A DNA stretch of 28,488 nucleotides, taken from contig JAZUOG010000083.1 of NCBI GenBank assembly GCA_045604545.1, positions 1-28,488 of the forward strand, written 5' to 3'. Source of the DNA: Acutalibacteraceae bacterium (GTDB lineage: Bacteria > Bacillota > Clostridia > Oscillospirales > Acutalibacteraceae). The notes beneath the pieces were generated by a model, which made no database searches, was not told where the DNA came from, and saw only the letters and a list, made by a program, of their open reading frames with translations. This document shows positions 273-28,466 of this stretch, piece after piece (positions within the stretch are counted from its first letter, which is position 1; each line of letters begins with the position of its first letter). A program made the position numbers and the translations under genes.

Positions 273-411
273 CCCGCAAATGCCGTGGCATCGCCCCGAC
301 CCCGTAGGGGACGGCCTCAACGGTCCGCCAATGTACCTGTCCCGATACGGACCACCGGGGACGGTGGTCCCTACGAATTGTATGGCACAATCCTGCGTCA
401 TCGCACCCAGC

Positions 412-3699: not shown

Positions 3700-5115
3700 T
3701 CATTCCGCGGGGGCGCACGGTACCTCGGCGGGAGGCTCCGACACCACGGTATCCGTTGTCGGCTCAGATTTCTTGCCGAGGATCTCGGGCAACTGCATGC
3801 CTGCCAACGCAAACACATCAGCAAGAGGCGGCACGGATTGCATCATACCCGACAGAAATCCTGCCGTGGCATTCTTGCCGTCGCCGTTCTGACCGTTGTC
3901 CCAGACGGTAACCTTGTCGATCTTGATATTCTTGATCGCGTCCACCTGCACACGCATGAGATCTTCGAGCTTATCGGCGATGAGGAGCTTGAGCGCGGCA
4001 TCGGTATCGCCGCCCGCCGACTTGACGATCTCGGCAAAACCGGCGGCTTGTTTTCTGAGGATCTCTTCCATGCCGCGGGCTTCTGCCGCCATCTTGGCAT
4101 AGATCGCGTCTGCCTCGCCCTGTGCCTTGCGGCGGATCTGCTCGGCTTCTGCTTCTGCTTCGATTTCCAACTGACGCTTTTTGGCTTCTGTCTGCACGAT
4201 CACATCGGCTTCGAGGGTTGCCTGTTCACGGGAGCGACGAGCCTCTTCGGCGGCCTGCTCGGCGGCATAGGATTCCTCGAGGGCTTTTGCTGCCTGAATC
4301 TTCTCGGCGGCAGTGGCGATGCGCAGTGCCTCGGCTTCTTTTTCCTTGAGTGCCGCATCGGACATGGCGATCTTCATTTTAGCTTCGTTTTCGCCTTCGA
4401 TGGCAACGGACGAGGCATTTGCCACTTGAATGCGTTGGTCCATGTGGGCGTTGGCCTCACCGATGGAGCCGTCTCTTTCGCGTTCGGCAACGCTCTTTTT
4501 CGCATCGTTGATCGCTTTGGCGGCGGCTTCCTTACCCAACGCGGCGATGTAGCCCGATTCATCGCTGATATCGGTGACGTTCACGTTGATCAGACGCAGA
4601 CCGATCTTTTTCAGCTCGGTCTCCACGTTACTGCTGACCGCCGCGAGAAATTTATCACGATCGGTGTTGATCTCTTCGATGTCCATCGTGGCGATGATCA
4701 GGCGCAGCTGACCGAAGATGATATCCTTGGACAGCTCCTGAATTTCGGAAAGCTGCAGACCGAGGAGGCGCTCCGCCGCATTCTGCATCACGCCGGGTTC
4801 GGTGGAGATACCGACCGTGAAGCGGGACGGTACATCGATGCGGATGTTCTGACGGGACAGGGCATTTTTCAGATCGACCTGGATGGAGATGGGGGTCAGG
4901 TCCAAAAAGGCATACGATTGAAACACAGGGACAACAAATTCTGCACCGCCGTGAATACATTTGGCACTGCGGTTGGTGCCGTCCTTGTTTTTGCCAATCG
5001 AGCCGTAGACGACCATGATCTTGTCGGAGGGACACTTTTTATAGCGTGAGCACGCCCACACAATAAAAGAGACCAGAATCAAGACAAGAGCCAGTACCAA
5101 TGCGATCGTTTCCAT
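3700..5115 (-). CDS. floT: Flotillin-like SPFH/band-7 protein (FloT/YuaG-like)
   Basis: N-terminal TM followed by an SPFH domain, then a long Ala/Glu-rich coiled coil (EAEAEQIRRKAQGEADAIYAKMAAEARGMEE). RBS aaggagg upstream. Lies directly downstream of an NfeD gene. Confidence 0.85.
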   Translation of the reverse strand: METIALVLALVLILVSFIVWACSRYKKCPSDKIMVVYGSIGKNKDGTNRSAKCIHGGAEFVVPVFQSYAFLDLTPISIQVDLKNALSRQNIRIDVPSRFTVGISTEPGVMQNAAERLLGLQLSEIQELSKDIIFGQLRLIIATMDIEEINTDRDKFLAAVSSNVETELKKIGLRLINVNVTDISDESGYIAALGKEAAAKAINDAKKSVAERERDGSIGEANAHMDQRIQVANASSVAIEGENEAKMKIAMSDAALKEKEAEALRIATAAEKIQAAKALEESYAAEQAAEEARRSREQATLEADVIVQTEAKKRQLEIEAEAEAEQIRRKAQGEADAIYAKMAAEARGMEEILRKQAAGFAEIVKSAGGDTDAALKLLIADKLEDLMRVQVDAIKNIKIDKVTVWDNGQNGDGKNATAGFLSGMMQSVPPLADVFALAGMQLPEILGKKSEPTTDTVVSEPPAEVPCAPAE

Positions 5116-6618: not shown

Positions 6619-6692
6619 TGCGGAATCGTGTAAGGGTAGCACTACGGCCTCTGACTCCGTCTGTCTAGGTTCGAATCCTAGTTCCGCAGCCA
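6619..6692 (+). tRNA. tRNA-Gln (anticodon CTG) with encoded CCA
   Basis: Manual cloverleaf. Acceptor tgcggaa/ttccgca (7 bp). D-arm gtgt-aagggta-gcac. Anticodon stem acggc/tccgt with loop cTCTGac. T-arm ctagg-ttcgaat-cctag. Discriminator G, then CCA. Architecture matches Firmicutes tRNA-Gln. Confidence 0.85.
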
Positions 6693-6879
6693 AAAAACGG
6701 TCATCGCTTTTGCGATGGCCGTTTTTACTGTCTGCTTCTAGGATTCGAAAGGGGCGTTAAGAAAACGTCACGGTGTGACGTTTTTAGCCCCGTTGGAGAT
6801 GAAGAGACTGCCGATTTTACATGTACCAAAAGACGAGATCAAAACTACCTCCTTGATAAAACACCTAGTTCCGCAGCCA
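6693..6879 (+). repeat. Tandem unit U1 (187 bp): terminator, T-arm-like fragment, internal hairpin, then a 16-nt copy of the tRNA-Gln 3' end
   Basis: Ends in cctagttccgcagcca (6864-6879), identical to tRNA positions 6677-6692. The internal A-run/hairpin/T-run lies at 6762-6785. Confidence 0.7.
6698..6726. terminator. Bidirectional intrinsic terminator T1 after tRNA-Gln
   Basis: A-run, then stem cggtcatcgc/gcgatggccg with loop tttt, then ttttt. Confidence 0.8.
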
Positions 6880-7180
6880 AAAAACGGTCATCGCTTTTGC
6901 GATGGCCGTTTTTTCTGTCTGCTTCTAGGATTCGAAAGAACCGAGCAGCGAGCGCGTCCGGGGGACGAAACAGCGAGCGCGGAGGGCTGTGCAGCAACGC
7001 GATTTTGCAAGCCGCAACCCTTTGCGGCGCAGAAAAATCGAATGTTGCAAACGTTAGTTAAGAAAACGTGCCAGGGGCACGTTTTCAGCCCCGTTGGAGT
7101 TGAAGAGACTGCTGTTTTTGCTTGCACCAAAAGACGAGATCAAAACTACCTCCTTGATAAAACACCTAGTTCCGCAGCAA
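6880..7180 (+). repeat. Tandem unit U2 (301 bp): same architecture as U1 plus a 103-bp GC-rich insertion; ends in the tRNA 3' copy cctagttccgcagcAa
   Basis: Begins with a T1-like terminator at 6885-6914. The internal hairpin at 7063-7085 differs from U1 by two compensatory base-pair changes. The 3' tRNA fragment is at 7165-7180. Confidence 0.7.
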
Positions 7181-7216
7181 AAAAACGGTCATCGTTGTTG
7201 CGATGACCGTTTTCTT
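7179..7216. terminator. Bidirectional terminator T3 (third copy), also terminating htpX on the minus strand
   Basis: aaaaaaa, then stem cggtcatcg/cgatgaccg with loop ttgtt, then tttt. The htpX stop lies 13 nt away. Confidence 0.75.
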
Positions 7217-7228
7217 GCTGTATTCGGA

Positions 7229-8179
7229 TTATTGCATGGGGTTGTCGAAGGCGGGAGCGGGCTCGCTCCGGGTGGCCTCGACGGCGGCAACGGCACTCAT
7301 TTCCTGCAGACGGCGCACACGCTCGCCGTTGTCGGGGTGGCTGGATTCCAGCGCGGCGAACAGGCCGTCCTTGCCGTGACCGGTGCCGAAGCTGGCGAGC
7401 ACCTCGCTCAGCGAGGGACCGTAGCCGCATTGATGCGCATAGGCGTCCGCTTCGTATTCGTTCCGGCGGCTGGTGGCCATGACGAGCCACACGCCGAGCT
7501 GTGTCCATGCACGCATCATCAGCACCAGCAGGAAGTCAGCGACCACGCGGGAGATGCTGATGAAAATGGACGCAACGACACCGCCCCAGCCTCTGCTGAA
7601 TGCCGCGGTGCAGAACTCGCCGATCCACATCATGACATTCGCGACCACGCGAACAATGACGAAGATGGTTGTCACGATCAGGTTGCCCACCGCAACGACC
7701 AGCACGTTGTCGGTGTCCTTGTGAGCAAGGTGACCGAATTCGTGTGCCATGACGCCTTTGATCTGCTCGTCGGAATAGTTGAGCAGGCCGCGGGTCACGC
7801 AAAGCGTTTTGCGACCGGTTGCGAAGGCGTTGGGCTCTTCATCGTCGGACAGGAACATCTGAATCTTGTCGTTGAGCTCGGGGTTGAGCGTTTTGGCGTT
7901 GGCATACACCTCGTCAAACAGCGGTTGCAAACGGTTGAGCACCTCTTGATCGGTGATCTTTTTGCAGTGGCTCTGCAGACGCAGGATCCATTCGCCGATG
8001 GGCGACAGGGCGATGGCGAAGGACGCCGCATAGATCAGAAAGCCCCAAAGAGCACCCATCCAGTCGGTGTAGAAACCGCTGAACAGCGCGGTGATCAGCA
8101 GGATGTTGAGCACCATCCAGATGATCAGACCGGTGTTGCTCTTCTTGAACAGGTTTTTGAAGAAGTCGACAACGTACAT
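7229..8179 (-). CDS. htpX: Zinc metalloprotease HtpX (peptidase M48)
   Basis: HEFGH zinc motif, NAFATG motif and two N-terminal TM segments. Start at MYVVDFFKN with RBS agaggag (the ORF-track start 8224 lacks an RBS). Confidence 0.85.
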   Translation of the reverse strand: MYVVDFFKNLFKKSNTGLIIWMVLNILLITALFSGFYTDWMGALWGFLIYAASFAIALSPIGEWILRLQSHCKKITDQEVLNRLQPLFDEVYANAKTLNPELNDKIQMFLSDDEEPNAFATGRKTLCVTRGLLNYSDEQIKGVMAHEFGHLAHKDTDNVLVVAVGNLIVTTIFVIVRVVANVMMWIGEFCTAAFSRGWGGVVASIFISISRVVADFLLVLMMRAWTQLGVWLVMATSRRNEYEADAYAHQCGYGPSLSEVLASFGTGHGKDGLFAALESSHPDNGERVRRLQEMSAVAAVEATRSEPAPAFDNPMQ

Positions 8180-8295
8180 GGTTTTTTCTCCTCTTTTCTG
8201 TGGATATCGGTATGCACACAGCATACAAGCATGATGTCACATTATGGCACAATCTGTCGCATAATGCAAGCGAAAAAGGATATTTTCCGAAAAAA

Positions 8296-11200
8296 TCACA
8301 GGCTTGCGATGCCGCAGTCGAAGGCGGCTTCGAGCACCTCGCGCAAGGTGTCGAGTGCGGAGAGTCCTTTGCGGATCTTCACGGTGTAATACGGTTTGGA
8401 GCCTGCACTGATCATCATTCTGCCTTGCAGGGCGGCGGACAGCGCCATCGCTTTGGGCATATCCAGCGCGAGCGGATACAAAAGCACCGCGTCGTTTTGC
8501 TGTTTAACTTCGACGATGCCTGCGGCGACCGCCATGTTTCTGAGCAATGCGACTTCGACGAGTCCCTGCACGGCGGCGGGCGGCTCTCCGAAGCGGTCGA
8601 TCAGCTCGTCGTACACATCGAGGCTGTCTTCCTGTGTGCGGATATCCGCAATACGGCGATAGGCTTCCAGACGCTGGGCGTGGTCGGGAATGTAGCGATC
8701 GGGAATGTGGGCGCTGACCTGCAGGTCGATGAGGCAATCCTGTTCGGAGGCGGCGGGGATCTCGCCCTTTTCCGCTTTGACCGCTTCTGTCAGCAGGCGC
8801 AGATACATATCGTAGCCGACCGCCTCCATGTGACCGTGCTGTTGCGCACCGAGCAGGTTACCCGCGCCGCGGATCTCCATGTCGCGAAGCGCGATTTTGA
8901 AGCCCGCGCCGAATTCGGTGAATTCCCGCATCGCGTCGAGGCGTTTGGAGGCGACCTCGTCAAGCACCTTGCCCGCCTTGAAGGTGAGATAGGCAAATGC
9001 ACGGCGGGAGCTTCGTCCCACGCGTCCGCGCAACTGGTGAAGCTGAGACAGACCGTAGCGATCGGCGTTTTCAATGATCAGGGTGTTGACGTTGGGAATG
9101 TCAACACCCGTTTCGATGATGGTGGTGCACACGAGAATATCCACCTCGCGGTCGAGCACCTGCCGCCAGATATCCGACAGCTGATCCTCGCTCATGCGAC
9201 CGTGGGCAACCGCGATGCGGGCATCGGGCAGACGCATCTGCCAGCCTGCCGCGACACGCTCGATGTCGTCGATGCGGTTATGCAGATAATACACCTGACC
9301 GCCGCGGCGAAGCTCGCGCGAGATCGCGTCTTTGAGCAGGCGGGTGTCATGCTCGAGCACGAAGGTCTGCACGGGGTGGCGATCCTGCGGGGCTTCTTCG
9401 ATGATGGACATATCGCGGATACCGCTCATCGCCATGTTGAGGGTGCGGGGAATGGGGGTGGCGGACAGGGTGAGTACGTCCACCGTCGGGAAGCGTTCCT
9501 TGATCTTTTCCTTTTGGGCGACGCCGAAGCGTTGTTCCTCATCGATGATGAACAGGCCGAGGTCGCGCAGCTGTACGTCCTGCGACAGCAGACGGTGGGT
9601 GCCGATGAGCAGGTCGATCTCGCCGTTTTTGGCGCGGCGAAGAATGTCGGTTTGCTGTTTTGCCGTGCGGAAGCGGGAAATCATTTCCACCGTGACGGGG
9701 AAGCCCGAAAACCGCTCGAGAGCGGACTGATAATGCTGATATGCCAGAATGGTGGTGGGAACGAGCAGTAAGCACTGCTTGCCTTCGGCGACACAACGGA
9801 AGGCGGCGCGGAAAGCGACCTCCGTCTTGCCGAAGCCGACATCGCCGCACAGCAGACGCTCCATCGGGACGGCGCGTTGCATATCGAGGCGGATCTCCTC
9901 CGCACAGCGAAGCTGATCGTCGGTCTCTTCATAGGGAAAATGCCGTTCGAAATCGTACTGCCACTCGCCGTCCTCCGAGAAGGCATAGCCCTTTGTCGCC
10001 ATACGTTTGGAATAGAGGGCGATGAGTTCCTTGGCGATGTCCTTGACAGCGCCGCGCACGCGGGTCTTGGCTTTTTGCCATTCCTGCCCGCCGAGGCGGT
10101 GGAGCTTGACGGTCACCTCGTCCTTGGTGCCGATGTATTTGGACACCAGATCGAGCTGTGTCACGGGGACATACAGCATATCGCCTTTGGCAAATTCCAG
10201 CTTGATGTAATCCTTGATGACGCCTTGCATGGACAGTTGTTGGATACCGAGATAAATACCGATACCGTGAGCGGCGTGGACGACATAGTCGCCTTTTTTG
10301 AGCTCTTCGAGACTGCCGATGGGGGTGCCGCGGTCTTTTTTCGCCATGAGACGGCGTTTTTTGGTGCGGGCGGCACGACCGTGGGTGAGAACGGCGATGT
10401 CGCCTTTGGGGAAATCAAAGCCCGAAGACAGACCGCCCGTCGTCACGATGATGCGGTTTTTGAGAGGCTTGTCGGGGTTCGGCGCATACATCGCAGGGAG
10501 TCCCGCCGCCGCGAGGTCTTCGGCGAGCACCTTCGCTGTTTTTTCCTCGGGACCGGCTAGTACGACCGCCGCCGCCTTGCGCTCCATCAGGTCTTTAAGG
10601 TCTTCCTCCAGCAGTTCGGTCGCGCCCGAAAACGGCGGAAGCTGGCGCGCTTCCACGTGCACCTGTGTGCGAAGCGGCAGGTTTTTGACGGTGCGGGTGA
10701 AGTTTTCGGTGATGATAAGCTGACGGGAGGCAAGAAGCGACGTCAGCTCGTCTTCCTCGAGCATAAAACGGTCGAGCGTTTTGCACAGCTTCGCTTCCTC
10801 GAGAAGAGCGGTCAGCTCCTCCGACAGTCGCCACGAAGCGGCGTGGAACTGGTCGACAAGACGGCTCCACTCGCACGCGAAAATGACGCTGTTCGGAAGA
10901 TAGTCAAACAGAGTGGAGGGCTTATCAAAAAGAAGCGGGAGATATTTATCGAGCGGGACGTGACCGCCGCCTTTGAGCACGGCGGCGTCGGCCGAAAGCC
11001 ATTCCTTGGCGGGTGCTTGCTTGCCGCGAAGGGTGGCAGAGAGGGCGGTCAGTTTATCGGCGAGGGCGGTTGTGTCCTCGCACAGCAGTTCCACGGCAGG
11101 CGGAATGCTCACCGAGGTGACCGTTTCGGTACGGCGCTGGGTGTCGATGTCGAAACGGGTCAGCGTGTCGACGGTATCGCCCCACAGCTCCAGACGAATG

Positions 11201-11766
11201 GGGGTGTCCTCCGAGGCGGGGAAGATGTCGGTGATACCGCCGCGCACGGCGAATTGTCCCGCGCTTTCCACCTTGTCACAACGTTCATAGCCTGCCGCTG
11301 TGAGGGCGGCGGGCAGGTCGGTGACGGGAAGGGGGCGGTCGGCGATGATGTCGATGGTGTTCATCAACAGGGTGTCGGGCGGCAACGTCAGCTGAGCGGC
11401 GGCTTCCGCCGATGCAACGACACAGTCCGCCGCGCCGTTCACCAGCCGACCGAGAACGGATAGGCGCTGTTGCTCGTATTCACGCGAGGAGGAACGCATC
11501 GCGCCGAGTGTGATCTCGCGAGCAGGAAACAGCACCGCGTCGAGCTCCATCGCCTTGAGGTCGTCTGTCAGCTTGGCGGCATCCGCTTCATCACCCGTCA
11601 GAATGATGGGTATGACGGTGGTGCGGCTGAGCACACCCGCTGTGACGGCGCGGTGAATGTGACCGAGTCCCGTCATAAAGACAGGAGTCTCTTTTTTGGC
11701 GAGTGCGTCGAGCACCGTGCTGACGGCAGGGTCGGCACACACGGCTTTGAACAGAACGGTTTTCAT
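8296..11766 (-). CDS. mfd: Transcription-repair coupling factor Mfd
   Basis: 1156 aa. Contains a UvrB-homology N-terminal region, an RNAP-interaction domain and an SF2 helicase core (GDVGFGKTEVA, DEEQRFGV, TATPIPRT motifs). Adjacent to pth as in Firmicutes. Confidence 0.95.
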   Translation of the reverse strand: MKTVLFKAVCADPAVSTVLDALAKKETPVFMTGLGHIHRAVTAGVLSRTTVIPIILTGDEADAAKLTDDLKAMELDAVLFPAREITLGAMRSSSREYEQQRLSVLGRLVNGAADCVVASAEAAAQLTLPPDTLLMNTIDIIADRPLPVTDLPAALTAAGYERCDKVESAGQFAVRGGITDIFPASEDTPIRLELWGDTVDTLTRFDIDTQRRTETVTSVSIPPAVELLCEDTTALADKLTALSATLRGKQAPAKEWLSADAAVLKGGGHVPLDKYLPLLFDKPSTLFDYLPNSVIFACEWSRLVDQFHAASWRLSEELTALLEEAKLCKTLDRFMLEEDELTSLLASRQLIITENFTRTVKNLPLRTQVHVEARQLPPFSGATELLEEDLKDLMERKAAAVVLAGPEEKTAKVLAEDLAAAGLPAMYAPNPDKPLKNRIIVTTGGLSSGFDFPKGDIAVLTHGRAARTKKRRLMAKKDRGTPIGSLEELKKGDYVVHAAHGIGIYLGIQQLSMQGVIKDYIKLEFAKGDMLYVPVTQLDLVSKYIGTKDEVTVKLHRLGGQEWQKAKTRVRGAVKDIAKELIALYSKRMATKGYAFSEDGEWQYDFERHFPYEETDDQLRCAEEIRLDMQRAVPMERLLCGDVGFGKTEVAFRAAFRCVAEGKQCLLLVPTTILAYQHYQSALERFSGFPVTVEMISRFRTAKQQTDILRRAKNGEIDLLIGTHRLLSQDVQLRDLGLFIIDEEQRFGVAQKEKIKERFPTVDVLTLSATPIPRTLNMAMSGIRDMSIIEEAPQDRHPVQTFVLEHDTRLLKDAISRELRRGGQVYYLHNRIDDIERVAAGWQMRLPDARIAVAHGRMSEDQLSDIWRQVLDREVDILVCTTIIETGVDIPNVNTLIIENADRYGLSQLHQLRGRVGRSSRRAFAYLTFKAGKVLDEVASKRLDAMREFTEFGAGFKIALRDMEIRGAGNLLGAQQHGHMEAVGYDMYLRLLTEAVKAEKGEIPAASEQDCLIDLQVSAHIPDRYIPDHAQRLEAYRRIADIRTQEDSLDVYDELIDRFGEPPAAVQGLVEVALLRNMAVAAGIVEVKQQNDAVLLYPLALDMPKAMALSAALQGRMMISAGSKPYYTVKIRKGLSALDTLREVLEAAFDCGIASL

Positions 11767-16592: not shown

Positions 16593-17006
16593 ATGGAACT
16601 GTCAAATGAAAAGGCACTTGCCGTGGAATGGCGTAAACTGAGAACCCTGCTCACCACCAACAACAAGCTGGAATACGAGTTGTTTAAAAAGGTGTTCGAG
16701 GAGACCAGAGACCTGTTGTCGTCCTGCGCGACGGCAACCGCCATCGACAAAAGCTACATGAACGTGATCGTGGAAGCCTACAAGTTCAGCGGCACTGACG
16801 GTGCTTACAAGGACGCAAAGCCGCAGGCGGCGCTCATCATGACCGAGCGTATGCTGCAGCATTATGTCCTTGACAGCCATGTCGGCGACGTGCGCAGCGG
16901 TGTGTATGTGTATGTGCTGGAAGCGAAGGAAGAGATCTACATTGACTTTGAAAATGTGGACACTTCCATCGCCGTTCTCGGCCGCGCTCTGGAGAGACGG
17001 TATTAA
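16593..17006 (+). CDS. Hypothetical protein (137 aa)
   Basis: RBS aggag 16581-16585, with the ATG at 16593 preferred by spacing. 22 nt after the upstream gene, so likely co-transcribed. Confidence 0.6.
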   Translation: MELSNEKALAVEWRKLRTLLTTNNKLEYELFKKVFEETRDLLSSCATATAIDKSYMNVIVEAYKFSGTDGAYKDAKPQAALIMTERMLQHYVLDSHVGDVRSGVYVYVLEAKEEIYIDFENVDTSIAVLGRALERRY

Positions 17007-17224
17007 GGGCAGGGATAAGGGCAGGGATATCCGCGACATCTGTCGCGGGTGATATTCGCACTACGTGCGAGTGATATTTGCCCCGCGGGCAAGTGAAATG
17101 TTGCTGTCGCAACGTGAAGGAGTCCGCTTCGCGGACGGATCGCCCTCTCAGTCTCGCTGACGCTCGACAGCTCTCCCATGGGGAGAGCCAAGGCGACCGC
17201 CTGTCGCGAGACCACCACCCAACT
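17007..17224 (+). repeat. Hairpin array: direct repeat gggcagggata x2, then four ~22-nt units (GTGAWAT + variable GC hairpin), then a nested multi-stem domain
   Basis: GTGA at 17049, 17071, 17093 and 17114. The hairpins are cgcac-tac-gtgcg, gcccc-g-cgggc, gttgc-tgtc-gcaac and gtccgc-ttc-gcggac. An outer stem gtctcgc...gcgagac encloses gctctccc-atg-gggagagc (17170-17188). Confidence 0.6.
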
Positions 17225-17300
17225 CTGTCATTGCGAGGGCGCGTAAGCGCCCGTGGCAATCTTCGCAGAAAGATTCTTCGCTTACGCTCAGAATGACAAG
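17225..17300 (+). repeat. Module B copy 2 (the GNRA loop gtaa replaces acaa)
   Basis: Aligns to 412-487. The differences are confined to the loop and a short segment of the 3' arm. Confidence 0.55.
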
Positions 17301-17519
17301 GGGGAGGCGATCAGCCTCTCACAAATTCTGCACCAATATGGGGGCAACCGTTGCCTCCCTTGCCTAAAGGGAGGTGGCACGAGCGTATGCGAGTGACGGA
17401 GGGATTCTTTTTGTGTACCGAAAACCACGCGTTAAACGCGTGGTTCAGTGAAGGCTATGCCGATGAGTAAAAAACACGGCTCTCCCTTTGGGAGAGCTGT
17501 CAAAACCGTAGGTTTTGAC

Positions 17520-17788
17520 TGAGAGGGCTTATACAGAACAGCCTCATTTAGTGGCGGCGTATACAGTAGAAGTGATCGGTCTGCTTAAATTCCCCACTCA
17601 ATGTGTTGATGGTTATCACAAGCCCTCTCCGTCATGGCCTACGCCATGCCACCTCTCCCAGAGGGAGAGGCAAGAAATAACTAAATACGCGGCTGGCAGA
17701 CTGTATTACGCGTTCTACGCGGAGGCTACGGAACAGAGGGCTATGCCCGCAAAAGAAAAACCACCCGTTTTACGGGTGGTTTCTTTTT
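17520..17788 (+). repeat. Module A copy 2, ending in a bidirectional intrinsic terminator
   Basis: ~97% identical to 1-272. Terminator ccacccg-ttttac-cgggtgg followed by tttcttttt (17761-17788). Preceded by the 9-bp hairpin gtcaaaacc-gta-ggttttgac. No convincing sigma-A promoter lies immediately upstream. Confidence 0.6.
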
Positions 17789-17802
17789 GCGTATAGGGGA
17801 GA

Positions 17803-24737: not shown

Positions 24738-25645
24738 GATGCGTCACCTCCTGCAAGAGAAGCAAAGTCATAGTTGCGCGCCTGCAGCTCATAGGTAAAG
24801 ACCTCTTCAAGCGTCAGCGGCAGAATTTCCAAAAGAAGCGGCGACAGCTCGCGTAGGTGCGCTTCCGTTTCCTCACGGTTGCCGTTCATGATGAGCTGTG
24901 CGACTGCGCCTTGCTGATGATAGTGCATGATGGGCAGTCGGTCGAAGCGGGAACGGTCAAAGCTGTCGGCAAACGCGATCTGCACCTTGAACACGTTGGT
25001 CTTCAGATCGGTGACATCCTGCTCCAGTACGATGCCGCCCTGATGAAGAAGGGCAAGCTGATCGCACATATCCTCAAGCTCACGAAGCGAGTGGGACACA
25101 ACGATCGCCGAGGTGCCGCGGGCGGTGATATCATCGATGATCATGTTTTTCACGATGTGGCGCATGATGGGGTCGAGTCCGTCCATCGTCTCGTCAAACA
25201 GGATCAGCTTCGGTTTGACCGACAGCGCCAGTGCTGTTGAGGTCAGGCGGCGCATACCCTTCGAAAAGGTGGAAATAGAACGTTTGCGGGGGAGACGAAA
25301 CTGTTCAAGCAGGACATTATAGCGTTCCTCGTCAAAGAAACGGTAGCTCGCTTTATACAGCTTTGCCATTCTCTCCACGGTGGCGTTATGTAAAAAATAC
25401 AGATCATCGGGCACAAACACCAGGTTGCTTTTGGCGTGGGGATTTTCATAAAGCGGCTGTCCGTCAAAGGTCAGCTCGCCCTCATCGGGGCGATAAATGC
25501 CGCAGATGGTGCGCAGAAACGTGGATTTACCGGCACCGTTGGAGCCGACAAGACCGTAAATACAGCCGTCGGGCACGGTGCAGGAGACGTCGTTCAATGC
25601 AGTGACATCACCGAAGCGTTTGGTGATATGCTGTGCTTTCAGCAT
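24734..25645 (-). CDS. ABC transporter ATP-binding protein
   Basis: Walker A GSNGAGKST, signature FSKGMRR, Walker B LILFDE. Confidence 0.9.
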   Translation of the reverse strand: MLKAQHITKRFGDVTALNDVSCTVPDGCIYGLVGSNGAGKSTFLRTICGIYRPDEGELTFDGQPLYENPHAKSNLVFVPDDLYFLHNATVERMAKLYKASYRFFDEERYNVLLEQFRLPRKRSISTFSKGMRRLTSTALALSVKPKLILFDETMDGLDPIMRHIVKNMIIDDITARGTSAIVVSHSLRELEDMCDQLALLHQGGIVLEQDVTDLKTNVFKVQIAFADSFDRSRFDRLPIMHYHQQGAVAQLIMNGNREETEAHLRELSPLLLEILPLTLEEVFTYELQARNYDFASLAGGDAS

Positions 25646-26022
25646 GAGGAGTCGCTCCTTTCGGAATAGATTTCGTCAATAAGGCAGAGAAGGTCTTCCT
25701 TCGGGATCCCTGCCAGCTTCATATCCTTCACCATGTCGGCAAAGGCGGTCAGACGGTCGCGGCTTTGGGCTTTGAGCGCCTTTGCGGCTTCTGCCGCAAC
25801 AAAGCACCCCTTGCCGGGGACGGCGCAGAGAACGCCCTTGGAACACAGGTCGTTATACGCCTTCTGGACGGTGTTGGGGTTGATGGCAAGCTGACACGAT
25901 AAGGCGCGCACCGAGGGGAGCTGAGCCCCTGCTGTCAGCACGCCGATCAGGATCAGCTTTTCCACCTGTGTGGTCAGCTGCTCATAAATCGGTACACGCG
26001 ACATCGGGTCAATCGAGAACAT
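25639..26022 (-). CDS. GntR-family transcriptional regulator, YtrA subfamily (short C-terminus)
   Basis: Winged-helix VPIYEQLTTQVEKLILIGVL...LPSVRALSCQLAINPNTVQKAY. RBS aaggaggg. First gene of the ABC operon, as in ytrABC. Confidence 0.85.
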   Translation of the reverse strand: MFSIDPMSRVPIYEQLTTQVEKLILIGVLTAGAQLPSVRALSCQLAINPNTVQKAYNDLCSKGVLCAVPGKGCFVAAEAAKALKAQSRDRLTAFADMVKDMKLAGIPKEDLLCLIDEIYSERSDSSC

Positions 26023-26044
26023 CCGTCATCCCTCCTTCGAAATT

Positions 26045-26103
26045 CAACTGTACTATGTGAACTAGTACAGTTAGACTATAACACGGTGAATGATGTTTGT
26101 CAA
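26045..26103 (-). promoter_or_regulatory. Autoregulatory region: promoter TTGACA-17-TATAGT (minus strand) followed by a perfect 10-bp inverted repeat AACTGTACTA-n7-TAGTACAGTT
   Basis: -35 at 26098-26103 and -10 at 26075-26080. The palindrome at 26045-26071 lies between the -10 and the RBS of the GntR gene. Confidence 0.6.
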
Positions 26104-26112
26104 GACAAGGAT

Positions 26113-26141
26113 TTGTATTTTTTCGGGAGATGTGGTATACT
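26113..26141 (+). promoter_or_regulatory. Promoter TTGTAT-17-TATACT (TGg extended -10) for the RAYT-uvrC transcript
   Basis: Hexamers at 26113-26118 and 26136-26141. The TSS is ~15 nt before RBS agaggtg. Confidence 0.5.
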
Positions 26142-26163
26142 GGATAAAACAGAGGTGATGGGC

Positions 26164-26628
26164 ATGAACACATTGCCGAATCGAAAGCATAATCGCCTGC
26201 AAGGGTACGATTATCGAACAAACGGTGTCTATCATGTGACGATATGCACAAAAAGAAACGCACCTGTGCTGTGCCGCGTCGTAGGGCGGGCAGACCTCTG
26301 CCCGCCGCAGGTGATGTTGACAAAGCTTGGGACGATTATTAAACGATATATTATGTCTATCGAAGGCGCCTATGATGATATCACTGTTGTGAAGTATGTC
26401 ATCATGCCGGATCATATTCACCTGTTGTTGGTGTTGAACGGAGCGCAGGGGTCTGCGCTCCCTACGGTCAGTAAAGTAGTCAAAGCACTGAAGGTTATGG
26501 TGCGCAAGGAGACCGGATATTCGTTTTTTCAAAGTTCTTTTTACGACCACATTATCCGCTGTCAACAGGACTATGACGCAACATGGGAATATATCGACAA
26601 CAATCCGCTCAAATATAAGGGGAGGTGA
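26164..26628 (+). CDS. IS200-like Y1 HUH transposase of the REP-associated tyrosine transposase (RAYT) type
   Basis: 154 aa. GYDYRTNGVYHVTICTKRN (beta1), HUH motif MPDHIHLLL, and C-terminal SFYDHIIR...DYDATWEYIDNNPLKYK, matching the RAYT catalytic-Tyr helix. Its stop overlaps the uvrC RBS. Confidence 0.8.
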   Translation: MNTLPNRKHNRLQGYDYRTNGVYHVTICTKRNAPVLCRVVGRADLCPPQVMLTKLGTIIKRYIMSIEGAYDDITVVKYVIMPDHIHLLLVLNGAQGSALPTVSKVVKALKVMVRKETGYSFFQSSFYDHIIRCQQDYDATWEYIDNNPLKYKGR

Positions 26629-26633
26629 ATGGA

Positions 26634-28466
26634 ATGATTGACGCACAGCTTGAGCATCTGCGCCGTGCGGCGATGGCGTTGCCGTTGTCGCCGGGTGTGT
26701 ACATCATGCGCGATAAAAACGGCACGGTGATCTATGTCGGCAAGGCGAAGGCGCTTAAAAACCGCGTCAGCCAGTATTTCGGCTCGCAGACCAATCATTC
26801 CATGAAGGTGCGGCGCATGGTGTCGCACGTTGACCGCTTTGAATATATCGTGGTGGGGAGCGAGTTTGAGGCACTCGTTTTGGAATGCTCGCTCATCAAG
26901 CAGTATCACCCGAAGTATAATATCTTATTAAAAGATGATAAGGGCTATCACTATATCCGCGTGTCGCCGCCGCCCTTTTCCCGCATCGCGGTCGTCAAAC
27001 AAAAAGAAGACGACGGCGCGCGGTATATCGGTCCTTACATGAGCTCGTTCGGCATCAAGCAGGCGGTTGATGAAGCAAACAAGGTGTTCGGACTGTCCAC
27101 CTGCTCCAGACAGCTTGTTTACGGCAAGCGCCCGCCGAGAACCGAGCGCCCGTGTCTCAATCACCATCTCGGGCAATGCTGTGCGCCCTGCACGGGACGC
27201 GTCAGCGAGGAGGACTATGCCGAGCGGGTGGCGGGAGCACTTGACTTGCTGACAAAGGGCAGTGCCACCATGATCGACAGTCTCGAGCGACAGATGGAGG
27301 AGGCCGCCGAACAGCTGGAATTCGAAAAAGCGGCGCGGCTTCGCGACCGCATTGCCGCCATTCGCCGCATTGACAGCCGTCAGAAGGTCGTCATGTCGCG
27401 TGTGCCCGAACAAGATGTGATCGCGATGGTGCGGTCAAACGGCAAGGCGTGCTTTGAGGTGTTTCGCGTGCGCGGCGGTGCGCTGACCGACCGCGAGGAA
27501 TTTGTCATCGATGAGGAAGGAAGCGAAAGCGCCGACCGCGGCGAATTTTTGTCGCAGTATTATGCGCTTCGCACCGCTGTCCCGCCGCAGGTGACGGTGG
27601 ACGATCTTCCCGATGACCACGAGCTTCTTGAACAATACCTCAGCGATAAAGCGGGACGGCGGGTGCACATCGTCCGTCCGCAAAAGGGGGAGCAGGCACA
27701 GCTTGTCACCATGTGCCGCGACAACGCGTCCCAGCATCTTGCCGATCTGCTCGGCATGAGCGGCAGGGAGACAGCGGCACTCGATGAACTCGGCACCCTG
27801 CTCGGACTGTCCGCACCGCCCGTGTGGATCGAGTGCTATGACATTTCCCATACTGCGGGCGAGGACGCGGTGGCGGGCATGGTCGTTTACGAAAACGGCA
27901 AGCCGAACAAATCCGCTTACCGCCGCTTTGCCATCAAACTCGCCAAGGGCGGCGATGACCCCGCTTCTCTGCAAGAGGTGCTTGCCCGCCGCATGACGGA
28001 ATATCAAAACGGGGCGGAGGGCTTTGACCGTCTGCCCGATGTGATACTGCTTGACGGCGGTGAGCTGCAGGTGAAGGCGGTCGGCGAGGTGCTCGCGCAG
28101 ATGAATATATCGGTGCCGCTCTTCGGACTTGTCAAGGATTCTCACCACCGCACCCGTGCGGTCACGGCGGGCGGGGAGGAGATCGCTGTGAGGTCCCACC
28201 GCGCGGTGTTCACGCTCCTTTCCGCCATTCAGGAGGAGGTGCACCGCTATGCGATCGGCTACCACCGCAAGACCCGCTCGCGCAAGATCGGCACCACGCT
28301 GACGAAGATCCCCGGCATCGGTGAGACCCGCGCCAAAGCGCTTCTGCGTCATTTCGGCTCGGTGAGTGCCGTTGCCGCCGCGACAGAGGAACAGCTGCTC
28401 CTCTGCAAAGGCATCACCGCTCCTGCGGCAAAAGCCATCGTGACATTTTTCAAAGAAGAGACATGA
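26634..28466 (+). CDS. uvrC: Excinuclease ABC subunit C
   Basis: GIY-YIG N-terminus (GVYIMRDKNGTVIYVGKAKALKNRVSQYF), UvrBC domain, RNase-H-like endonuclease domain and C-terminal HhH. Start at MIDAQLEHL with RBS ggagg. Confidence 0.95.
   Translation: MIDAQLEHLRRAAMALPLSPGVYIMRDKNGTVIYVGKAKALKNRVSQYFGSQTNHSMKVRRMVSHVDRFEYIVVGSEFEALVLECSLIKQYHPKYNILLKDDKGYHYIRVSPPPFSRIAVVKQKEDDGARYIGPYMSSFGIKQAVDEANKVFGLSTCSRQLVYGKRPPRTERPCLNHHLGQCCAPCTGRVSEEDYAERVAGALDLLTKGSATMIDSLERQMEEAAEQLEFEKAARLRDRIAAIRRIDSRQKVVMSRVPEQDVIAMVRSNGKACFEVFRVRGGALTDREEFVIDEEGSESADRGEFLSQYYALRTAVPPQVTVDDLPDDHELLEQYLSDKAGRRVHIVRPQKGEQAQLVTMCRDNASQHLADLLGMSGRETAALDELGTLLGLSAPPVWIECYDISHTAGEDAVAGMVVYENGKPNKSAYRRFAIKLAKGGDDPASLQEVLARRMTEYQNGAEGFDRLPDVILLDGGELQVKAVGEVLAQMNISVPLFGLVKDSHHRTRAVTAGGEEIAVRSHRAVFTLLSAIQEEVHRYAIGYHRKTRSRKIGTTLTKIPGIGETRAKALLRHFGSVSAVAAATEEQLLLCKGITAPAAKAIVTFFKEET

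Follow-up and report, generated by a model that had tools for sequence, protein, structure and literature searches.

Does a RAYT-type nuclease gene that lies between a promoter and the excision-repair gene uvrC take part in DNA repair, or is it only lodged there? The question is raised by contig JAZUOG010000083.1 of an Acutalibacteraceae metagenome-assembled genome (MAG; GenBank GCA_045604545.1), which was analyzed as a whole (28,488 bp; hereafter, the window). Directly upstream of uvrC, an open reading frame (ORF) of 154 residues had been proposed, in a reading made from the sequence alone, to encode a REP-associated tyrosine transposase (RAYT; REPs are repetitive extragenic palindromes) that is transcribed with uvrC and wired into excision repair. 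The explanation that we consider probable is that a working RAYT, resembling subclass 2.4/group 4 of the family, carries its REPs inside its own ORF and is expressed as a passenger of the uvrC promoter, with no function in repair. Judged by sequence comparison, the juxtaposition of the two genes is a lineage-restricted leader insertion, not a new repair circuit.

Identity of the nuclease

The protein contains the segments YHVTICT (residues 23–29), HIHLL (residues 84–88), and FYDHIIR...DYDATWEYIDNNP (residues 126–148). Its detectable homologues number 513, the nearest named ones deriving from Oscillospiraceae, Acutalibacteraceae, and Clostridia MAGs. A profile built on 25 members of the family matches Escherichia coli TnpAREP (PDB 4ER8) at an E value of 1.1e-11, bringing PDHIHLL into register with PEHMHCI, FQSSFYDHIIR with WQPRFWEHAIR, and WEYIDNNP with VDYIYINP. 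In this alignment, Y143 of the YIDNNP motif, which takes the form YI[ED]NNP across the family, corresponds to the catalytic Y115 of TnpAREP, and the E. coli residues that read the GTAG guide (W94, Q95, E100, H101, and R104) correspond to F122, Q123, D128, H129, and R132. Among the 25 sequences, H84, H86, Q123, H129, and R132 are invariant and Y143 is conserved in at least 90%. The hallmark motifs named in the sequence-only reading are present, but the tyrosine of its FYDH segment is not conserved. We rejected that residue as the catalytic one, as the 92%-identical orthologue of the relative L084 has His in its place and several others have His or Phe, while it is Y143 that aligns with the known tyrosine.

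An AlphaFold (AF2) model built on the alignment (pLDDT 86, pTM 0.81) positions the HUH motif on strand 84–91 and Y143 in helix 134–153. Its best fold match in the PDB is again 4ER8, with a TM-score of 0.67 and a root mean square deviation of 2.9 Å, relative to TM-scores of approximately 0.5 for IS608 and ISDra2. The likeness to E. coli TnpAREP (the RayT YafM; subclass 2.2, group 2) extends to the HUH motif with a single tyrosine of Y--xNP type on a C-terminal helix, to the conserved GTAG-reading residues, and to REPs with a GTAG foot, although the two proteins share only 19% identity. On these sequence and fold grounds the ORF is a RAYT/TnpAREP-type HUH-Y1 enzyme of TnpAY1 class 2, a class marked by the Y---NP as opposed to the Y---Q signature (PMC6006769), and the proposal of a 154-residue RAYT-type HUH protein, borne out by the ORF, the REP_Tyr_transpos model, and the profile and fold matches to 4ER8, stands.

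Could the gene instead be an ordinary mobile insertion sequence of the IS200/IS605 type, bounded by terminal hairpins, that hopped recently to a place before uvrC? The HUH/Y1 core and the recognition of hairpins in single-stranded DNA (ssDNA) are common to this gene and to the IS200/IS605 transposases TnpA of IS608 and ISDra2 (subclass 1.1). Weak matches to Pfam Y1_Tnp and to the NCBIfam IS200 model (17.6 bits relative to a cut-off of 55) point in the same direction, as do genomic contexts that differ across species and the several paralogues per genome in some relatives. The signature is Y---NP rather than Y---Q, however, the best sequence and fold matches are to TnpAREP and not to IS608 or ISDra2, there is no tnpB, and, because the RAYT ORF abuts Shine-Dalgarno (SD) sequences on both sides, its ends leave no room for subterminal hairpins. 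The synonymous divergence (dS) between the RAYT gene and its L084 orthologue, 0.12, equals that of the flanking genes (0.09–0.16), which indicates vertical inheritance of RAYT at the uvrC site and speaks against a recent hop. Other features typical of IS200/IS605 transposases, namely a dimer with an active site in trans and multiple near-identical copies, are likewise not seen here. We hold an insertion sequence of this type to be extremely improbable. The sequence-only reading had itself set a multi-copy IS200 with terminal hairpins against its proposal; what was found is a Y---NP protein whose ORF abuts SDs and which has no second copy in the window, so that the description as single-copy is accurate within the 28-kb contig, the scope that was checked.

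The public gene call at this position, P0001, covers 26353–26628 and yields 91 residues from M64, with no Pfam domain. Since P0001 begins at M64, the half upstream of the HUH motif is excluded together with the first REP, and the family is under-annotated.

REP hairpins inside the reading frame

The window was searched for hairpins preceded by GT[AG]G, with shuffled windows serving as the control. Five matches of any kind were recovered, relative to approximately one per shuffled window; three of the five are alike, each with GTAG, a perfect 9-bp stem beginning with GG, and a 4-nt loop, and two of these three are inside the RAYT ORF. The two, REP 1 and REP 2, form all nine stem pairs each and bracket the HUH codons (Table 1). 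Both stretches are low-confidence loops of the AF2 model, with the REP 2 loop situated between the HUH strand 84–91 and helix 102–117.

The same arrangement recurs among relatives, for which the sample comprised 80 species-representative loci with 37–48% identity to the window RAYT. An inverted in-frame pair, one REP on each strand, was found in 69 of 79 related loci at approximately +115 and +285 nt, and the GTAG falls in codon frame 0 in 66 of 70 RAYT genes. REP density is 3.84 per kb inside RAYT genes versus 0.22 per kb in their flanks. Stems differ at a mean of 0.8 of 16 nt within a gene and 5.6 between genes; being alike within and different between genes, they indicate a hairpin that persists through changes in its sequence. 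Half of the GTAGGG-type REPs in the flanks (36 of 72) match the intragenic stem of their own locus, and many are situated less than 100 nt from the gene.

A metagenome scan for the REP core GCAGACCYCTGC returned at least 120 contigs. Among the matches listed, 160 of 162 REPs are outside RAYT genes, 146 of these 160 extragenic REPs have the GTAGGGGCCGCAGACCYCTGCGGCCC stem, and many are inverted doublets with 79-nt spacing, that is, REPINs of approximately 105 nt. Doublets of two inverted GTAGGGGCCGCAGACCYCTGCGGCCC hairpins with this start-to-start distance were observed at L104 10857–10961, at L105 5577–5681, and at approximately 30 other metagenome loci. The REP 1 sequence of the window, allowing either base at the Y position of the pattern, is present in at least five metagenome contigs in non-RAYT contexts. 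As read from these sequence patterns, the locus is a genuine REP/REPIN–RAYT system. The earlier statement that no REP pair flanks the gene is correct as worded but misleads, in that two canonical REPs reside inside the ORF, as in most relatives.

A mechanistic model can be proposed by homology with E. coli TnpAREP. A RAYT monomer would bind the REP hairpin in ssDNA, would read its 5′ GTAG foot via Q123, D128, H129, and R132, and would cut and rejoin DNA via a 5′-phosphotyrosine on Y143, with the metal held by H84 and H86; this cutting and rejoining would maintain or move REP/REPIN elements. The cognate REPs would lie in the gene rather than beside it, as inverted GTAG hairpins that are read in frame as two predicted surface loops around the HUH segment.

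Several relatives carry more than one RAYT gene. Two or three divergent copies within 12 kb were present in some, and paralogues within a few kb of each other were observed at L010, L008, L038, L041, and L048. The two tandem copies at L010 (5995–7268), approximately 790 nt apart, have the same REP stems. The MAG JAZUNN01 has RAYT copies on two contigs (L033 and L041). At L025 (5900–6560), the first ~40 nt of the RAYT gene (AATATTAAAATGGAT..GATTACATGGATGAATTACCAC) are fused to a GTAG REP and recur up- and downstream of the intact gene, which looks like a REP-associated partial duplication of the RAYT 5′ end.

The uvrC leader and its history

The sequence-only reading had correctly described how RAYT is placed between a promoter and uvrC, and how the promoter, the SD, and the stop codon are arranged (Table 1). 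The promoter-like string, TTGTAT-17-TGGTATACT, was missing from a consensus scan because its -35 element matches at only 3 of 6 positions. TGTGGTA and most of the -10 element are invariant in all seven uvrC loci aligned (alignment A3), RAYT-free loci included, and the TTG of the -35 element is invariant in the four loci of alignment A2, a RAYT-free genome included; judged from this conservation, it is the native uvrC promoter. The RAYT TGA is within GGAGGTGA, the canonical Firmicute uvrC SD (GGAGG at 26621–26625), 5 nt before the uvrC ATG. In all compared genomes, with or without RAYT, GAGGTGA and 5–6 nt precede the uvrC start codon. This layout being native to uvrC, RAYT simply reads into the native uvrC SD and terminates at its TGA. 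A scan of 25900–26800 found no terminator-like site between the promoter and uvrC, and this, together with the RAYT stop inside the uvrC SD, makes a single mRNA with translation coupled by termination-reinitiation plausible. The shared transcript and translational coupling that had been expected are, to that extent, in keeping with the sequence.

It is from this geometry that a functional tie between RAYT and nucleotide excision repair could be argued: co-translation would have been selected as a hairpin nuclease and an excinuclease act together, or as RAYT tracks repair capacity. Favoring such a tie, the arrangement with its stop inside the uvrC SD is tight and is kept in three genomes, and the ORF has remained intact under purifying selection over a divergence at which UvrC is 89% identical. 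The GAGGTGA layout is native to uvrC even where RAYT is absent, however, and none of the 80 related loci has uvrC within 6 kb of RAYT (tblastn). The closest homologues, P0002–P0004 from three genomes (57–60% identity in alignment A1, 60–65% by local BLASTP), are found in an hflX operon, in the row polA–hflX–RAYT–HGSNAT-like acyltransferase gene (overlaps of 4 nt in two genomes), and in none of the three does RAYT precede the genome's own uvrC. RAYT is fragmentary in L091 and L092 and absent in L087–L090, with uvrC intact. No LexA-box-like GAAC-N4-GTTC is present near the RAYT–uvrC promoter, window-wide matches being at chance level, and SOS control of the unit was rejected on this basis; our literature search on a RAYT–uvrC link or on the Clostridial RAYT clade found nothing relevant. 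A tie to repair is thus very unlikely, and neither a conserved synteny with uvrC nor the proposed wiring into excision repair is supported by these comparisons.

Nor does any other neighbor recur across the related loci, where ORF clustering detected no neighbor family in more than six loci. What does recur is position: by a crude ORF call, 61 of 76 loci have an upstream neighbor that shares the strand of RAYT, at a median gap of ~6 nt, and this tight placement behind a same-strand gene suggests reliance on host transcription. As a side observation in one of the hflX-linked genomes, a second RAYT-like ORF, apparently degraded and with a GTAG REP, was detected between rsmA/ksgA and polA (L081, 3670–4086); in the two sister genomes, this place is taken by a DUF559 gene.

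At the uvrC site of relatives, RAYT is intact in three genomes (the window, L084, and L085/L086), a remnant in two (L091 and L092), and absent in at least four (L087–L090). Relatives with UvrC 98% (L084) and 89% (L085/L086) identical have the same GntR–RAYT–uvrC layout, and L087 (UvrC 87%) has a clean 30-nt leader with no RAYT. At 81–82% UvrC identity, L091 (2700–2950) and L092 (888–1038) lack the GntR–ABC operon and have RAYT fragments between the conserved -10 element and uvrC; the 5′ and 3′ ends of RAYT are kept, and the middle with both REPs and the HUH motif is deleted. In relatives at 79–80%, the site is empty or shows no more than a possible REP scar. The simplest account is one old insertion into the uvrC leader that was kept in some lineages and decayed or was lost in others. 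We considered L087 as an ancestral empty site, which would imply a recent insertion, and rejected this on account of the RAYT remnants at the same place in the more distant L091 and L092; the insertion is probably old, L087 having lost RAYT cleanly, although a second insertion at a hot spot may also have occurred. That the remnants arose by precise REP-to-REP excision is not supported, given that the deletion in L092 runs ~6 codons upstream and ~23 codons downstream of the REPs.

A perfect 26-nt direct repeat, GTCGGGAGGTGAGACGGATGGCGGAA, flanks the L085 RAYT (4508–4533 and 4979–5004; also in L086) and corresponds to the uvrC SD, ATG, and first two codons; as the repeat holds the uvrC start, the L085 RAYT begins MAES and UvrC begins MAED. 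Recombination between the two copies would excise RAYT cleanly, and may have done so in L087. This repeat is the only such case in 71 loci. Three candidate traces of insertion were rejected: i) target-site duplication as a general mechanism, as direct repeats of at least 10 nt occur in only 3 of the 71 loci, ii) the direct repeat at L025, which proved to be a tandem duplication of part of the RAYT 5′ end together with a REP, and iii) the 7-nt GAGGTGA shared by the two ends in the window, which is a canonical SD that also stands before uvrC without RAYT. Directly downstream of uvrC, L087 has a serine recombinase gene and an AbiEii/DUF6088 pair (6903–11562), and this stretch is probably an integrated mobile element; in L084 and L085 the place is occupied by other genes and by a small acid-soluble spore protein (SASP) gene.

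Selection on the gene bears on whether it is still functional. The ratio of nonsynonymous to synonymous divergence (dN/dS) of RAYT is 0.33 relative to L084 and 0.25 relative to L085, and that of uvrC is 0.05–0.08; RAYT is under purifying selection, 4–6 times less constrained than uvrC. This relaxed constraint would suit a decaying relic without present function, transcribed only through its place in the uvrC leader, as would the remnants at the same site in sister lineages, the scores below curated family cut-offs given below, and a public gene call of only 91 residues. Such decay is at odds with a full-length ORF in three genomes, with dN/dS values well below 1, with the intact HUH motif, Y143, Q123, H129, and R132, with two perfect REP hairpins, and with a confident structure prediction; we consider a relic unlikely.

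Several observations count against the explanation that we prefer, a working RAYT carried as a passenger. The Pfam model Y1_Tnp (PF01797) scores 21.2 bits, below its gathering score of 23, and NCBIfam NF047646 (REP_Tyr_transpos; E 7.7e-15) scores 55.1 bits relative to a cut-off of 80 and covers residues 71–150 only. Given that many homologues have a precomputed PF01797 match and that the fold match is clear, the former is a near miss by a divergent sequence; the latter model appears to be built around other RAYT subclasses. The hidden Markov model (HMM) check that the sequence-only reading had suggested accordingly gave curated models below their cut-offs but a family profile that reaches 4ER8. 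The Trp of the WQ motif, kept in many relatives, is Phe (F122) in the window protein, and the enzymatic activity of this RAYT, as of the whole Clostridial clade, is predicted by homology only. Within the 28-kb contig, the sole further REP has a stem different from that of the intragenic pair. The L085 RAYT is only 47% identical to that of the window, no closer than unrelated family members, and has a different REP stem type (GGGGAGGGC); a replacement or second insertion may belong to the history of the site, and any one of fast divergence, allelic replacement, and re-insertion could account for the difference. Lastly, an intact RAYT under purifying selection where UvrC differs by 11% means that the RAYT–uvrC arrangement may confer some benefit.

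With these points weighed, the passenger model remains the one that we favor. A RAYT would have landed in the uvrC 5′ untranslated region in an ancestor of a genus-level clade and would be expressed from the native uvrC promoter, with its stop in the native uvrC SD and probably on one mRNA with UvrC. We infer both this co-transcription and the absence of a repair role; expression as a passenger would conform to the habit of a family that is typically without its own promoter and placed tightly behind or between host genes.

Known systems and the wider window

Published analyses anticipate part of this arrangement. TnpAY1 subclass 2.4 (Quentin, Siguier, Chandler & Fichant 2018, PMC6006769), which equals RAYT group 4 (Bertels, Gallie & Rainey 2017, PMC5581495), is described by the motifs NH[IFV]H, WQ, and YIxNNP (Table 1 of PMC6006769), and REPs that lie in frame within its genes have been published, as have GTAG REPs whose stem base consists of G-C pairs; one REP listed for the subclass is GTAGGGACAGACTTTATGTCTGTCC. 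The window protein has DHIH, FQ, and YIDNNP, and its clade [DN]HIH, [FW]Q, and YIxNNP, which places the RAYT closest to subclass 2.4/group 4, as judged from motifs and not from those authors' HMMs. In common with the subclass, the RAYT has the [N/D]H[IFV]H, [W/F]Q, and YIxNNP motifs in a core that is not extended at its C terminus, REPs whose stems have G-C pairs at the base next to a 5′ GTAG foot, a REP that leaves the reading frame unbroken in the loop after the HUH strand (REP 2 of the window, residues 93–101), and probably a low copy number with divergent paralogues, to judge from the single copy in the 28-kb contig and the divergent copies of some relatives. Unlike the subclass, the window protein has 154 residues relative to a median of 194, with Asp for Asn before the HUH motif and Phe for Trp; the REPs of the Clostridial clade enclose the HUH motif as a regular inverted pair whose positions are fixed, REP 1 (residues 40–48) being the one before it; and the window copy has no flanking REPs. 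The E. coli gene differs further: it stands alone as a REPtron, with REP pairs on its flanks and with REPs that are long and bulged, whereas the window gene has short perfect 9-bp stems inside its ORF and is embedded in a host transcription unit.

Table 1 Features of the window that bear on the RAYT–uvrC unit
Feature	Coordinates	Strand	Details
RAYT/TnpAREP-type HUH-Y1 nuclease gene	26164..26628	+	ATG start, 154 aa, TGA at 26626-26628; from the ORF list
Intragenic REP 1	26281..26306	+	GTAG foot, 9-bp stem GGCGGGCAG/CTGCCCGCC, 4-nt loop; in frame as V40-G41...P48; ssDNA fold -12.2 kcal/mol
HUH codons H84-I85-H86	26413..26421	+	Between the two REPs; aligned with HMH of 4ER8; His invariant in 25 sequences
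Intragenic REP 2	26440..26465	-	Inverted relative to REP 1; GTAGGGAGCGCAGACCCCTGCGCTCC; encodes G93...P100-T101; ssDNA fold -11.9 kcal/mol
Y143 codon	26590..26592	+	Predicted catalytic Tyr in YIDNNP; aligns with TnpAREP Y115; at least 90% of family
Promoter of the RAYT–uvrC unit	26113..26141	+	-35 TTGTAT 26113-26118, 17-nt spacer, extended -10 TGG-TATACT 26133-26141; read from sequence
SD of the RAYT ORF	26152..26158	+	GAGGTGA, 5 nt before ATG; layout alike in L084, L085
Junction	26621..26636	+	GGAGG-TGA-ATGGA-ATG; uvrC SD, RAYT stop within it, uvrC start codon at 26634
uvrC, downstream gene	26634..28466	+	610 aa; TIGR00194 537 bits; GIY-YIG, UVR, RNase H-like, HhH domains
Third REP	349..374	-	Same architecture, different stem; repeat-rich intergenic region; ssDNA fold -11.2 kcal/mol
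Palindrome (context only)	26046..26072	.	AACTGTACTA-N7-TAGTACAGTT; probably the operator that serves the divergent GntR(YtrA-like)–ABC operon

Upstream of the RAYT promoter, a divergent operon runs leftward, with a YtrA-like GntR regulator at 25639–26022 (GntR domain match) followed by an ABC ATPase and a permease. The palindrome at 26046–26072, which the sequence-only reading had put forward as a possible RAYT substrate, overlaps the transcript start of the strong minus-strand promoter TTGACA-17-TATAGT (26103..26075) and is invariant in the RAYT-free L087. We rejected it as a RAYT site for these two reasons; from its position it is a probable operator of the GntR–ABC operon.

Elsewhere in the window, two intergenic regions are rich in repeats (1–540 and 17000–17800), with 1–270 equal to 17520–17789 at 97% and 412–489 equal to 17225–17302 at 90%. 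Both are dense in GC-rich hairpin modules that are not of the GTAG type, e.g., GACAGCTCTCCCATGGGGAGAGCC and its inverted partner at 17166–17189 and 17478–17501, and the second contains an Rfam Gut-1 RNA (RF01706; 17047–17125, plus strand; 53.3 bits relative to a gathering score of 50). A tRNA-Gln(CTG) at 6619–6692 is followed by three 75-nt modules (6677–6751, 6864–6938, and 7165–7239), the first overlapping the tRNA 3′ end, each of which holds a terminator-like hairpin (AAAAACGGTCATCGCTTTTGCGATGGCCGTTTTT); a 157-nt repeat is found nearby (6756–6912 and 7057–7213).

The RAYT described here adds a new, divergent member to a RAYT subclass that was already known, and the literature partly foreshadows the regular REPIN found inside the genes of this very large Clostridial clade. 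The family is very common in gut and rumen Clostridia, with at least 489 matching stretches among species-representative genomes, and its GTAG hairpins probably explain part of the short GC-rich intergenic palindromes in these genomes, a source of spurious ORFs. A gene that encodes the enzyme and also contains two matched hairpins of the kind it targets offers a compact system in which to test the co-evolution of RAYT specificity and REP sequence. More speculatively, and as a suggestion that we find rather doubtful, the inverted REPIN at fixed in-frame sites around the HUH motif could be more than a pair of tolerated insertions: it could serve as a protected master copy that seeds the REPs of the genome, or as a site of self-recognition through which the enzyme is regulated or limited, with embedding in a host operon (uvrC or hflX) replacing the REPtron layout of flanking REPs. 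If so, this would be a RAYT gene built around its own substrate, with stems matching the dispersed REPs of its genome.

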